From: Octopus vulgaris
Taxonomy: Eukaryota
Length of the DNA: 64,000 nucleotides
Assembly (NCBI GenBank): GCA_951406725.2
Contig: OX597817.1
Coordinates: 163,928,001 to 163,992,000, forward strand
Direction of reading: 5' to 3'
Positions within the stretch are counted from its first letter, which is position 1, and every line of letters starts with the position of its first letter. The notes beneath the pieces were generated by a model. The model was not told where the DNA came from and did no database searches. It worked only from the letters and a program-made list of their open reading frames with translations. Positions 4,741 to 62,945 of the stretch are shown here, piece after piece. A program made the translations under genes and the position numbers.

Positions 4741-5112
4741 AATATTATTAGAGACAAAACCACTATTTTGCAAATCAATACATAAAAAATTTTAATATAA
4801 AGTAAATAAATCACCACTACAATTGTTTCCTGTCTTCAAATGACATTCATCATAACTTTAAAATTGAATAGAAGATATGAAATCCACCTGATGAATGTCA
4901 TTTGAAGACAGGAAACAATTGTAGTGGCGATTTATTTACTTTATATTAAAATTTTTTATGTATTGATTAAGTCTTTCCTTGTTTGATTTGCAAAATAGTG
5001 GTTTTGTCTCTAATTAATATTATATATATATTTTACTATAAAATTGGATTCAATCCTAAATCTGATTTTTCCCTGTAAATTTGGATTTATTCACTAATAT
5101 TTATTATTATTA
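4741..5112. mobile_element. Hammerhead-bearing Penelope-pLTR/retrozyme-like element, family 1, inverted pair in (TA)n
   Basis: 4741-4852 is the reverse complement of about 4889-5021 (small deletion in the left arm); (TA)n on both sides; near-identical copy at 23898-24208. Confidence 0.8.
4884..4927 (+). ncRNA. Type I minimal hammerhead ribozyme
   Basis: CCAC-CTGATGA-aTGTC atttgaa GACAg-GAAAC-AATT-GTA-GTGG: stem I CCAC/GTGG, intact core, stem II TGTC/GACA, palindromic stem III ACAATTGT, GUA site. Confidence 0.85.
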
Positions 5113-5139
5113 TTATATATATATATATATATATATATT

Positions 5140-5273
5140 AACCAAATTCACTCACAAGGCAGTCGTCAGCCCGAGGCTAGAGAAGAAGACGTCTGCCCAA
5201 AGTACTGCGCAGTGGGACTGAACCCGAAACCTCGTGGTTACAAAGCAAGCTTCTTAAACACGAAGCCTTGCCT
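5140..5273 (-). mobile_element. SINE family B 5' fragment
   Basis: Matches aaattcactcacaaggc...gcagtgggactgaaccc of the fuller copies. Confidence 0.7.
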
Positions 5274-5635
5274 ATGTTTATATATTTTATCTTAAATAAT
5301 TTTTTATTTTATCGGGAAGACTATCTCTGAAGTCATTAATGCTATTGATGTGTGACGTCAAATGAGGAGAGAGTCATAGGCACGAGAGCAATGTTAAAAT
5401 GAGAGTTGATATTTCTATTTCTTTTATGTATGTTTATAATTGTGATACTATTGTTCATTGCAATGAAAATTATGCTGGTTTAAGGGCATCATATCGTGTG
5501 CCAAGTGTCAATGACATCTCAGTTACAACAGAAATTCGGTAGACTTGATAAGGTACCACCATCTAACATAACAGATGAGAAAGTATGACACACCAAAATT
5601 GTCATAATTTTTTGTTTTAATAAAGGCAGAATTTA

Positions 5636-5852
5636 AGACGGTGAGCTGGCAGAATTGATACCGCTTCGAACAAAATGTTTAGCGGCATTTCTTCTGATTT
5701 TACGTTCTGAGTTCAAATCCCACCGGGATCGATTTTGCCTTTCATCCTTTCGGGGTCGATAAAATAAGTACCAGTTGAGAACTGCGGGACGATGTAGTCG
5801 ACTTACCACCTCCCCAGAAATTGTTGGCCTTGTCCTAAAATTTGAAACCAAT
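5636..5852 (+). mobile_element. tRNA-derived SINE family A (Meta-domain-like core), older tail type
   Basis: Head gagctggcagaa...gagttcaaatcc (Pol III box A/B-like); core tttgcctttcatcctttcggggtcgataaaataagtacc. Confidence 0.8.
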
Positions 5853-5874
5853 ATAGGTGGACTATTTGTGAGAA

Positions 5875-6258
5875 TTCTTTCTACTTATAAATACAAGGCC
5901 TAGAATTTTGGAAGAGGGGACCAGTCAATTACATCGAACCTGGTACTCTACAAGTACACATGTTATCGACCCGAAGAGATAAAAAGGAAAAGTCTACCTC
6001 AATATGAAAAGAGCGAGAGGAAATACCTATTTCTTTACTACCCACAAGGGGCTAAACACAGAGAGGACAAACAAGGACAGACAAACGGATTAAGTCGATT
6101 ATATCGACCCCAGTGCTTAACTGGTACTTAATTTATCGACCCCGAAAGGATGAAAGGTAAAGTTAACCTCGGCGTAATTTGAACACCGAACGTAACGGCA
6201 GTCGAAATACCGCTCAGCATTTTGTCCGGCGTGCTACCGGTTTTGCTAGTTCGCCGCT
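5875..6258 (-). mobile_element. Composite SINE family A (young unit joined to an older unit)
   Basis: Junction gaaatacctatttcttt at about 6020-6036. Confidence 0.8.
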
Positions 6259-59639: not shown

Positions 59640-60000
59640 TATACATACAAACATACATAAATACATACATTCACACATACATACAAACATATAAACATAT
59701 ATACATATGCACACACACACAATACATACATACATATATGCATGCCTGCATACATATATACACATACATACATACATACATACATGCATATACATACATA
59801 AATACATACATACATACATACATACATATACATACATACATACATACATACATACATACATACATGCATGCATACATACATACATACATAGATACATACA
59901 TACATACATACATACATACATACATACATACATACATACATACATACATACATACATACATACATACATACATACATACATACATACATACATATGCATA
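59640..60000. repeat. (TACA)n microsatellite
   Basis: Seen directly; similar arrays at 61895-62200. Confidence 0.95.
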
Positions 60001-60780
60001 TGTATGTTTTTTGATTAAAATTTTTGTTTTCGAAGAATTCGCAAGAAACAGCAGATGATAATGACAGACAATTTGTGTTCAGACCGGAACGTATACCTTA
60101 ATTCGACGTCGAACGAATAATTAAACTGGAATCCGAACCAACAGGAGTTGGCCGTAGGCAATATATCTATCGAGCTGATAGAAGCATAAGAATTACTGGC
60201 GGTTATTAATACCATTTATAGAAGTATTTATTTTATAAATGCTACGATGCCACTACCAACTGCCTCCCCATCGTTTATTTTATTATACGTTGATTACAAA
60301 TAATTATTTTGTATTCCTGGAAGTAAGATCTCTAAAACGTTTCATTAAAATATATCTAATTCATATATTAATACTATAGACGTTTGTGAGATTCAAATGT
60401 GTGGGGGGTGTAAGCATGTATATATGGTACACTGTATTCTTTCTGTTCAATATTTTCATTATGTTTTAAATATAAATTTTTTGTACGTCCTTCCCTCAAG
60501 ATATTCTCGCTTGTAGTAATTAACCAAATTGATTTAGTTAAGTTAAATTAAATTTGGTTGATTTTATGTTGCAAGTGATGAATTGAAACAATTGTAGGTC
60601 TGGTCTTGTCAATGAACTAATAGACTTTTATTAATCGTATCTCCATCTTTATATATATATATACATACACATATATATATATATATATATATATATATAT
60701 ATATATATATATATATATCCATCGTGTGTATGTGTGTGTGTGTACGTATGTGTATATGTATGTATATATGTACATACATA

Positions 60781-61001
60781 TACCAGGAGTTGCTGAAATG
60801 TTCTTGGCTTTGGATAAAAGAAAATACAGAAGGATCATTCAATTATGATTTTATTCCACATATTCCACTCTCAGATTCATATACGTATTGTAGCGGACCT
60901 TCGGTTTTTCTAAATCATGTAAAAGAAATCGGAAGGTTCGACTTCCAGCCAGGCCTTTCTCGATACCCTTAAAGCTGGGAACTTTTCAGCTGCCCCTCGT
61001 A
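60781..61001. mobile_element. mariner-type MITE
   Basis: Left end TAccaggagttgctgaaatgttcttggcttt; right end (reverse complement) TAcgaggggcagctgaaaagttcccagcttt. Confidence 0.7.
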
Positions 61002-61099
61002 TGTATGAAATAATGTATGTATGTCTCTTCTATTTTTTAATCATTATAAATTTTCTACTGAGGAGGGAGCCGGTTTCCAACAAAGATACAAAGTTCTAT

Positions 61100-61840
61100 C
61101 TTTCGGACGTAGTTAACACAGACGAATTCACATTTGGAACTTGAGAAAAGTCTTGCATATTTTTATTGTTCCACTCACAGATTGCATTTGTAATGTACGA
61201 ATTAGCCGGTAAATTTCTCTTTCTGAAAAGAGATGTTTATATCTGCAGGGTAGCTGACCTCTATGATGGTACATATCTTTGCCCCTCTGCCAAACAACAA
61301 TATCCGGTCTGTTATGTTTACATTTGACTTTTCATGCGAATATTCCACCAGTATTCTTTTGAGTTGGTGTTTATGAATGTATTCCATAAGAACGGGAGTT
61401 TCTAAGTTTATTTCAGGACAGTCTTTTTTGCGGATGGCATTGTAAATTGTTTTAGCAACAACATCGTGCCGCATAGGGAGGTAGTACTGTGATGACATTT
61501 TAGGACAGCTGCTAATCACATGCATAATGTCTTCCACAGAAACATGACATAACCTACACATGCGGTTGCACCTTAGACTTACAAGAGCGTCAGTCTCTCT
61601 TGTCCACCAGGTACTCTGTGACAATCTCCTGTTCCTGGATTGCAAACGCATAGCCTTCAAAGAGTGATGTGATGCAGTGGACTTGTGTCCAAGAGAGGCT
61701 GCGCTTCGTGTCAATTCTACTGTCTTCTTAAAGATTCCGGGCATGGTCTTTTTGTATGCTGAGTGCTTTCCATCCAGGTCATCGCTGAGATAAGAGAGCC
61801 CAGCTATTTGGGGGCTGTATACCTCCCTCAGAGCCATTTA
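61100..61840 (-). mobile_element. R4/Dong-clade LINE 3' fragment (CCHC knuckle and restriction-like endonuclease), decayed
   Basis: ORF 61202-61837 contains CRLCHVSVEDIMHVISSC...RHDVVAK and CTIIEVS.P.D.NI. Confidence 0.85.
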
Positions 61841-62752
61841 GGCGAAGAGAAATTAGATAGATAGACAGACAGATAGATAGATAGATAGATAGATACATAC
61901 ATACATACATACATACATACATACATACATACATACATACATACATACATACATACATACATACATACATACATATATACATGCATGCAAACGTACATAC
62001 ATACATATATTCAAACATGCATGCATACTTATATACATGCATACATACATACATACATGCATGCATACATGCATACATGCATTCAAACAGTCATACATAC
62101 ATATGTACTTGCATGCATACGTACATACATACATACATACATACATACATACATACATACATACATACATACATACATACATACATACATACATACATAC
62201 ATATTGTCTGGTGAAATAGATTGATTTTCTGAAATAAAAACAAACCCCCTGAATTTGTAATATGCATTAATTGTAATTTGGCGCAATGTTATGTATTCAT
62301 TTATTCATAACGTCATTCGCAGACTATGTAAGAATGGGTTGCTCTTGGTAACACTTTTACGTAACGACAACATAGGAATTTATATGCTCAAAAATGTATG
62401 TGTGTATGCTGTCATTTATGCTTTATTTCTATATTTCTCGCCAATGAAAAAAAAAAGAGCCGGTTTGCAACCTAGAACCAAGGCAACTTCATAGGAATTT
62501 CAACAAACATCAGTAAGGCACATTTGTGATCGAGTATTTAGAGTCAGTGCATATGCATTTCCGTAGGTTTTCTTCTATGTATATATGTGCGTGTAAATAC
62601 AAGTCGTAGCAGACGAGAAACGTCAGCCAACGGCTCCGGAATACTCAAATATGTACATATCTGTATACATACATACATACATACATACATACATACATAC
62701 ATACATACATACATACATACATATCTATATGTGTGTGTGTGTGTGTGTGTGT

Positions 62753-62945
62753 ATTGTTGGCGATTTTCTTTCTCCGTCTTCCCTTCCTTGGACCTTTCCT
62801 GTTTCTATGTTTCTGACGAAGAGCTCCGCTCGAAACGTTAAATCCTCCTTCGTCCTTTCCTTTCCTGAGCGTCCAATAACACCATACTTGTTCCACGTCC
62901 TCGCGTTGTTGTGTTTTCTCTTTGTGTTTTCATGTTTGGATTAAC
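62753..62945 (+). mobile_element. Hammerhead-bearing element, family 2b, ending in (TA)n
   Basis: Homologous to 52214-52390; microsatellites on both sides. Confidence 0.7.
62809..62843 (+). ncRNA. Ultra-minimal type I hammerhead ribozyme
   Basis: GTTT-CTGACGA-a-GAGC tcc GCTC-GAAAC-GTT-AAAT; loopless palindromic stem III (AACGTT). Confidence 0.75.

Follow-up and report, generated by a model that had tools for sequence, protein, structure and literature searches.

Minimal hammerhead ribozymes (HHRs) are reported to occur thousands of times per genome, mostly as single motifs, and to be tied to Penelope-like elements (PLEs); features described for them include a U3-A8 core, an extra base after A9 and an intron that ends at helix I (PMC4209133; this source, PMC8557442, PMC3846280, PMC2377424, PMC7229834, PMC13282606 and bioRxiv 10.64898/2026.07.22.740005 are cited here from extracts). 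Craig et al. 2021 (PMC8557442) define a Hydra clade of PLEs, describe its targeting to (TA)n and include an octopus member with an HHR, Hydra-1_Obim of Octopus bimaculoides. Solo pseudo-long terminal repeats (pLTRs), palindromic junctions and intron retention are discussed in PMC3846280 and PMC2377424, the former leaving open whether PLE introns are kept through copying of the antisense strand or through unspliced sense RNA; PMC8557442 calls the significance of intron retention unknown. A derivation of retrozymes from pLTRs has been proposed in a preprint whose extract samples no mollusc (bioRxiv 10.64898/2026.07.22.740005), and neither "hammerhead" nor "ribozyme" occurs in the main text of the octopus repeat annotation (PMC13282606). 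It has already been published that pLTRs contain HHRs, that solo copies number in the thousands, that (TA)n is targeted and that octopus has a Hydra element. Here we analyze HHR elements in a 64-kb window of the Octopus vulgaris genome (GCA_951406725.2, contig OX597817.1, positions 163,928,001 to 163,992,000; 35% G+C and rich in microsatellites), in which a preliminary description had noted twelve HHR sites. The whole genome, 2.8 Gb in 227 contigs, was searched for relatives. Positions below are those of the window, and L numbers designate the genomic loci examined.

The described strings are present at all twelve coordinates, and 11 of the 12 sites fall into eight dispersed HHR repeat families (A, B, C, D, E, F, G and I). 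These elements are further members of Hydra, Neptune-related and retrozyme-like families, which is largely known biology; the fresh point is a split within family A between short spliced copies and long unspliced ones. Our preferred reading, to which we assign a probability of about 0.8, is that two of the eight families are pLTRs of coding PLEs, that the others are likely relatives or protein-free derivatives of such elements, and that all were likely pasted into (TA)n by Penelope enzymes. The families share with the minimal HHRs of PMC4209133 a short stem I, a palindromic or absent stem III, the extra base after A9, the U3-A8 core and an intron end close to helix I, as well as the occurrence of many families per genome, mostly as single copies, and of opposite-strand pairs 100-700 bp apart; octopus, U6 and C4 cores and genomic copies with the intron removed are not mentioned in the extract of that paper.

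Family A is the pLTR of a coding Hydra-clade PLE with an 821-aa protein containing reverse transcriptase (RT) and GIY-YIG domains. Its coding copies were reached by walking upstream from a long copy. L221 consists of a 1.35-kb pLTR with HHR and tail, an open reading frame (ORF) with one frameshift, a GT-rich 3' untranslated region (UTR) of 1.7 kb, a second pLTR, a tail and (TA)n, and its two pLTRs show 99% identity along 1.35 kb. The same pLTR-ORF-pLTR arrangement is found again in L222, L223 has an unbroken 821-codon frame with YRDD and YIGST, and L224 is a truncated coding copy. The partial tandem of pLTRs, the inverted 5' copy and the tail, all hallmarks of PLEs, are found in A and G. Both window copies of family A lie on the plus strand with (TA)n on either side. 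The first (4741-5113) comprises an inverted arm at ~4736-4852, a spliced exon junction, an HHR at 4884-4927 with its predicted cut after 4923, the pLTR end and a 70-nt tail. The second (23893-24209) has a short inverted arm, a spliced junction, a complete HHR at 23984-24027 with palindromic stem III, and a tail.

The A protein carries YRDD, YIGST, DKT, a CxCX5C linker, and CxxC and CxH around E and N, and is devoid of GxKF/Y and CX2-5CxxC. Judged by these motifs, it appears to fit the Hydra clade as defined in PMC8557442, a KWK motif and size apart; the C-terminal GIY-YIG domain, DKT, CxCX5C, CxxC and CxH, (TA)n and 3' HHR are all common to that clade, while the 5.5-kb unit, the 1.35-kb intron-bearing pLTR and an Asn-rich insert set family A apart from the members in the extract. 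Scoring of 8,000 candidates yielded 11 homologues with 28-62% identity, the only named one being from Octopus bimaculoides (62% over ~105 residues). We note that asparagine makes up 16% of the protein, and that RT and endonuclease are separated by an Asn-rich stretch (L223 ORF; L221:3650-3900) resembling the N-rich inserts of rotifer Penelope ORFs in the extract of PMC3846280. Sequence words of family A are also present in sequencing runs under six organism labels, and the family may therefore be common to related species.

Family G is the 3' end of another Hydra-type PLE. In L122, an inverted pLTR, a frameshifted and truncated RT/GIY-YIG ORF and ~230 nt of 3' UTR precede the G HHR; the ORF is 26-34% identical to the A protein and, by eye, close to the Hydra-1_Obim rows of PMC8557442. 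L189 retains an endonuclease remnant 300 nt before a G-like HHR. Short palindromic G copies, a form that the query favoured, reach just 2-22 nt upstream of the core. The window copy (44088-44318, plus strand) consists of two pLTR ends arranged as a palindrome, with an HHR at 44233-44288 (noted as 44231) in which core position 4 is C and little remains of the 5' strand of stem I. Stem II and GAAA are separated by an extra U both in this HHR and in that of family I (L211, ~1455-1550), unless A9 is paired into stem II instead; stem II of family I is very long. The HHR motifs of A, B and G have no match in the extracted supplement of PMC8557442, where line breaks could hide one.

The link to Penelope RT and GIY-YIG enzymes put forward in the preliminary description is thus direct for A and G, in which HHR and ORF are joined, and takes the form of close homology for B. 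Family B is represented at 11394-11581 on the plus strand (HHR 11451-11486, with an extra A after A9) and at 35180-35395 on the minus strand (HHR 35275-35310); both HHRs are whole apart from U at core position 6. These sequences are 72-79% identical to the 3' pLTR of an abundant coding Neptune PLE. A search with the end of the GIY-YIG ORF upstream of a B-like HHR in L025 gave 18,249 candidates, of which 150 were scored and 30 taken. A B-like pLTR follows the Neptune ORF on the same strand in 28 of the 30 loci (27 nearly whole, L157 partial) and is absent after the ORF from L163 and L179. L152 shows the RT and the Neptune linker (DKG, CX2-5CxxC) ahead of GIY-YIG. This B sister resembles Neptune-clade PLEs in DKG and the CX4CXXC linker, the order of RT and GIY-YIG, the HHR near the 3' end and (TA)n at the 3' junction; it differs in the U6 core, which is found in 21/21 tallied coding-sister copies and 15/15 tallied B copies. 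No report of a natural U6 (A6U) hammerhead was found among titles and abstract beginnings, although PMC4209133, PMC11167929 and preprint supplements may hold such variants. With its very abundant copies, the U6 Neptune family lets one ask, as an experiment of nature, whether cutting is required of pLTR hammerheads.

Family C is related to B over ~80 nt around the HHR. Its first copy (62747-62945, plus strand) has a complete minimal HHR at 62809-62843, and its second (52207-52387, plus strand) is decayed, being 73% identical to a family copy, with an HHR remnant at 52259-52293. A fixed 5' limit is never passed in ~24 B and ~19 C copies, incidental ones included. B proper and C are either short non-autonomous offshoots or 5' UTR copies of coding elements.

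Several observations count against the preferred reading. The A protein has KWK (residue 44) where the Hydra motif is RWK, and the A unit of ~5.5 kb, a size due to its intron and 3' UTR, exceeds the <3 kb general to Hydra elements, which is not a strict criterion. There is no Pfam match for this protein, the RT and GIY-YIG call being motif-based. Among the copies examined, no coding element has B's exact sequence, only the 72-79% sister being coding, and the U6 shared by B and that sister suggests that their HHR may not cut. Two B copies 4.5 kb apart (L225) were rejected as a pLTR pair since they belong to a segmental duplication. A coding partner was found for none of C, D, E, F and I. The putative start site of family A, discussed below, is deduced from a motif and the ends of copies. 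The genome searches score the 40 best candidates, so that samples lean to young copies. Finally, covariation in family F is ambiguous. In favour of the preferred reading, among 13 F-type motifs double-sided changes in stems I and III occupy 10 cells versus 3.4 in shuffled data (0/500 shuffles), and stem positions are 90.5% paired versus 23-54% for slid partners. Against it, the pair-level measures are not significant (122/500 and 66/500 shuffles), and the cell counts are inflated because the sequences are related.

The split within family A concerns a GT-AG intron of ~1.09 kb in the 5' UTR, which ends 13 nt before the HHR core. Among the 15 best A loci, obtained with a query that began just after the splice junction, 10 are spliced (nine by script, L025 by eye), four are unspliced, with the intron end present, and one is uninformative; the window copy at 4884 is spliced as well. 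No spliced copy extends more than 34 nt beyond the junction in the upstream direction. At −29 stands an initiator-like motif, which we take to be the putative start site. Eight loci with the 3' UTR were found by a 3' UTR query; seven of these reach the donor, and all seven keep the intron (four by direct survey, three by continuous alignment). The upstream pLTR of L221 starts inside exon 1 and is unspliced. A palindrome similar to the RFX X-box lies ~45 nt upstream of the putative start (L221:6290-6310) and may point to germ-line expression.

The clean removal of the intron from short A copies suggests that the 5' part of the element's spliced mRNA served as their template. We give somewhat better than even odds to a model in which PLEs reverse-transcribe spliced sense mRNA, RT starting just after the first pLTR to yield short 5' UTR copies, with unspliced read-through RNA needed for whole elements. 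In this scheme, the GIY-YIG domain would nick (TA)n and RT would initiate internally on the RNA, both where the pLTR ends and where the tail ends, as has been shown in vitro for a lizard PLE (PMC11167929). The first start site on a spliced mRNA lies in the 5' UTR, hence a short spliced copy as product: a start at the first pLTR of ordinary spliced mRNA would have the 5' UTR alone copied back to the cap, giving a spliced "mini-element" of ~260 nt. Read-through RNA that stays unspliced and extends to the second pLTR would be the template for whole elements. Most copies show the inverted arm and the tail known from PLE insertions. The lizard element, Poseidon PAc of Anolis (Frangieh et al. 2024, PMC11167929), likewise has two 3' ends per family, pLTR and tail, and AT-rich targets; it differs in that internal initiation was demonstrated in vitro there and is deduced from genomic copies here, and spliced 5' UTR copies are not reported in the main text of that study. 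A search of titles and abstract beginnings found no report of spliced pLTR or PLE copies, which is weak evidence of absence as subscription papers are poorly covered.

If short copies do arise from spliced sense mRNA, no antisense template would be needed to explain intron retention in PLEs, and a single internal-priming rule would account for many of the solo HHR repeats of animal genomes as by-products. The young family A, with ~2,400 search candidates, makes the intron-retention question testable from genome sequence alone. For annotation, we note that HHR repeats are easily filed as unclassified short interspersed elements (SINEs).

A SINE-like master offers a different origin for the spliced A copies, one in which a single spliced retrocopy gave rise to all of them and no repeated abortive copying of mRNA took place. 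Such a master would also produce a fixed 5' ceiling, and we regard it as possible, at odds well short of even. The spliced copies, however, can be sorted by eye into two or more sequence variants, have 97-99% similarity to the pLTR of the coding copies, and are without the upstream promoter region.

All short copies could also be ordinary 5'-truncated full-length PLEs, with neither non-autonomous families nor a special 5' UTR route. According to the extract of bioRxiv 10.64898/2026.07.22.740005, a single pLTR with 5' truncation is the usual PLE outcome, and two unspliced A copies (L017 and L018) and family D agree with this. Copies of family D carry inverted arms and a tail, and their 5' ends are ragged over >1 kb, a pattern typical of a longer element that has been truncated. 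In the window (19724-20122, plus strand), its HHR is divided into halves at 19738-19757 and 19961-19987 by an unrelated repeat piece (~19783-19944) that splits loop II by ~160-180 nt and has no clear target duplication; the HHR is whole in L139, L142 and L148. No ORF lies upstream of D within the >1 kb walked, nor upstream of I within ~600 nt. A pair of D copies 3 kb apart in L139 was rejected as a pLTR pair, being a duplication across an assembly gap. As a general account truncation is nevertheless improbable, since truncation of 3' pLTRs cannot give precise intron loss limited to copies that end at one upstream point, and the tails of E and F units run straight back into their own unit.

These last two families come closest to retrozymes. 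E is an ORF-less tandem unit that recurs every 472 nt in L094 and L100; in 11 of 14 other loci (10 by pattern, one by eye) its tail leads back into the unit start. F is likewise ORF-less, with a unit of 357 nt in L080, and an F-like family has one of 362 nt in L198. Both have one type I HHR per unit, occur as dimers and partial tandems only, and have no match to the three PLE proteins tested. From their sequence organization, E and F fit non-LTR retrozymes derived from pLTRs (PMC7229834; bioRxiv 10.64898/2026.07.22.740005), sharing with the retrozymes of those extracts ORF-less tandem units, here of 357-472 nt, with one type I HHR each; they differ in being partial tandems with inverted arms and tails at dispersed sites. 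The window E copy (37660-38262, minus strand) has its HHR at 37758-37819 and an inverted arm with tail at 38036-38262. The F copy (50790-51137, plus strand) has an inverted arm and an HHR at 51052-51094 with a U3-A8 core and palindromic stem III, and lies away from (TA)n.

Extending this to every family, as independent non-autonomous retrozymes that spread via circular RNAs, is quite unlikely. The retrozyme-like size and tandem units of E and F favour such an account, as does the 5' point that B and C copies never pass. It is already refuted for A and G, which are ends of coding elements, retrozyme families being without coding capacity; the D 5' ends are ragged, to >1 kb, and long tandem arrays were not seen in any locus examined. 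The radiation of non-autonomous, non-coding elements that had been proposed for the window consequently holds for E and F, which are ORF-less, and perhaps, given their hard 5' ceiling, for B and C, and does not extend to A and G, which are pieces of coding PLEs, or to D. Family I (58425-58762, plus strand; inverted arm 58139-58191) retains in the window only the 3' half of an HHR (58456-58477, noted as 58460), which is whole in other copies, with an entire core in L211 and L139; in its 3' end and the pattern of its tail, the family resembles A. At least six families with no obvious similarity outside the ribozyme had been described; there are eight, and their separation is only partial, in that 3' sequence is common to A and I and an alignment of B with C is possible around the HHR.

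That the motifs are chance matches in AT-rich, microsatellite-rich DNA has a negligible probability and is already refuted: the loosest descriptor did give five matches in one of 30 shuffles and the call at 53418 was false, but the shuffle tests, a test on 200 kb and the stem changes of family F argue against it, and in dispersed families the motifs are found again and again at set positions within PLE ends. A strict type I descriptor finds five matches in the window versus a mean of 0.8 in 30 block-dinucleotide shuffles, one of which also reached five. With longer stems and one core mismatch allowed, the count is six against a mean of 0.33 and a shuffle maximum of 2. A descriptor tuned on the window gives six matches versus none in 20/20 shuffles, and in 200 kb of other genomic DNA outside the tuning it gives 10 versus ~0.25 expected, of which three or so resemble chance. 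Among the 150 of 189 Rfam matches listed for the window there is no hammerhead family; those listed are microsatellite-driven microRNA and small nucleolar RNA matches only.

Four of the six motifs initially considered complete or compensated pass the type I descriptor. Those at 23984, 37758 (minus strand) and 62809 have the canonical core CUGANGA...GAAA...UH with stems I and II, and 51052 is a complete HHR with U3-A8. The other two fall short, with an A.G mismatch at the base of stem II in 4884, which is otherwise complete and is counted as impaired, and the split loop II in 19738. The variant or partial sites at 11451, 35275, 44231, 52259 (a decayed member of the 62809 family) and 58460 are supported, and 53418 is not an HHR. 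Its relatives are a repeat, 68-75% diverged, without HHR; the window element (53227-53455) is an old dispersed repeat forming an inverted duplication around (TA)n. Further CUGANGA...GAAA strings at 1351, 6723, 31604, 36443, 57748 and 53904 fail stricter descriptors and were rejected.

Each of the eight stem III strings examined pairs with itself as a duplex (−3.4 to −9.8 kcal/mol), and none folds into a hairpin, in agreement with the palindromic stem III described earlier. Because stem III is a palindrome with no loop or a one-base loop, folding of the HHRs is predicted to require dimers or the help of protein, and cleavage is likewise a prediction. The dimer-dependent minimal HHRs in the extract of PMC4209133 also have palindromic stem III and cleave poorly in vitro, and the PAc HHR cut only with protein and was dispensable for insertion in vitro (PMC11167929).

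Insertion mostly next to (TA)n is confirmed, with (TA)n within 4 nt of 10 of the 11 elements, all except F, while 7.6% of random positions have it within 15 nt. With family copies as queries, the window has 11 elements in 64 kb versus 4 per 100 kb both in its flanks and in ten other genomic places; one of the 12 BLAST sites in the window is the A-like end of the I element. The window is richer in HHR elements than average, a contrast that is inflated since it was this window that supplied the families. Measured over 200 kb, the density of 4 per 100 kb scales to a rough figure of the order of 100,000 sites genome-wide. First-look search candidates, which are not copy numbers, amount to 2,397 for A, 2,776 for B, 1,802 for C, 292 for D (many of them for the repeat inserted in loop II), 2,676 for E, 2,522 for F, 70 for G and 1,876 for I. 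Different HHR families often stand back to back in one (TA)n array (L103, L139, L140, L025 and L054), which would help to build dense clusters such as the window.

A search of the GIY-YIG family as a route to coding partners led mostly, in 30 loci, to a young 781-aa Neptune family and its relatives. The U3-A8 HHR of that family is none of the window's, and window-family matches at these loci are separate insertions. Neptune remnants near C, E, F, D and A copies (L003, L092, L075, L141, L024 and L099) were not counted as partners; L003, L092, L141 and L099 were inspected, and the remnants there are either downstream of the copy or in opposite orientation to it. The Neptune PLE itself is very young (L104:406-4087); a 359-aa ORF precedes its 781-aa RT/GIY-YIG frame, which is open at full length in many places, and its pLTR has the HHR downstream of a splice-donor-like site. 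Other variants resembling HHRs, one of them with GCAA for GAAA, lie close to the 3' ends of further Neptune families (L105 and L106; L058, L063 and L064).

Much of the remaining window sequence consists of SINE-like repeats, dozens of copies of a few abundant kinds (e.g., 5634-5837, 13291-13637 and 51200-51362). Part of the old repeat at 53418 is a conserved segment (53470-53560; also in L203 and L206), the reverse strand of which looks tRNA-derived by eye.

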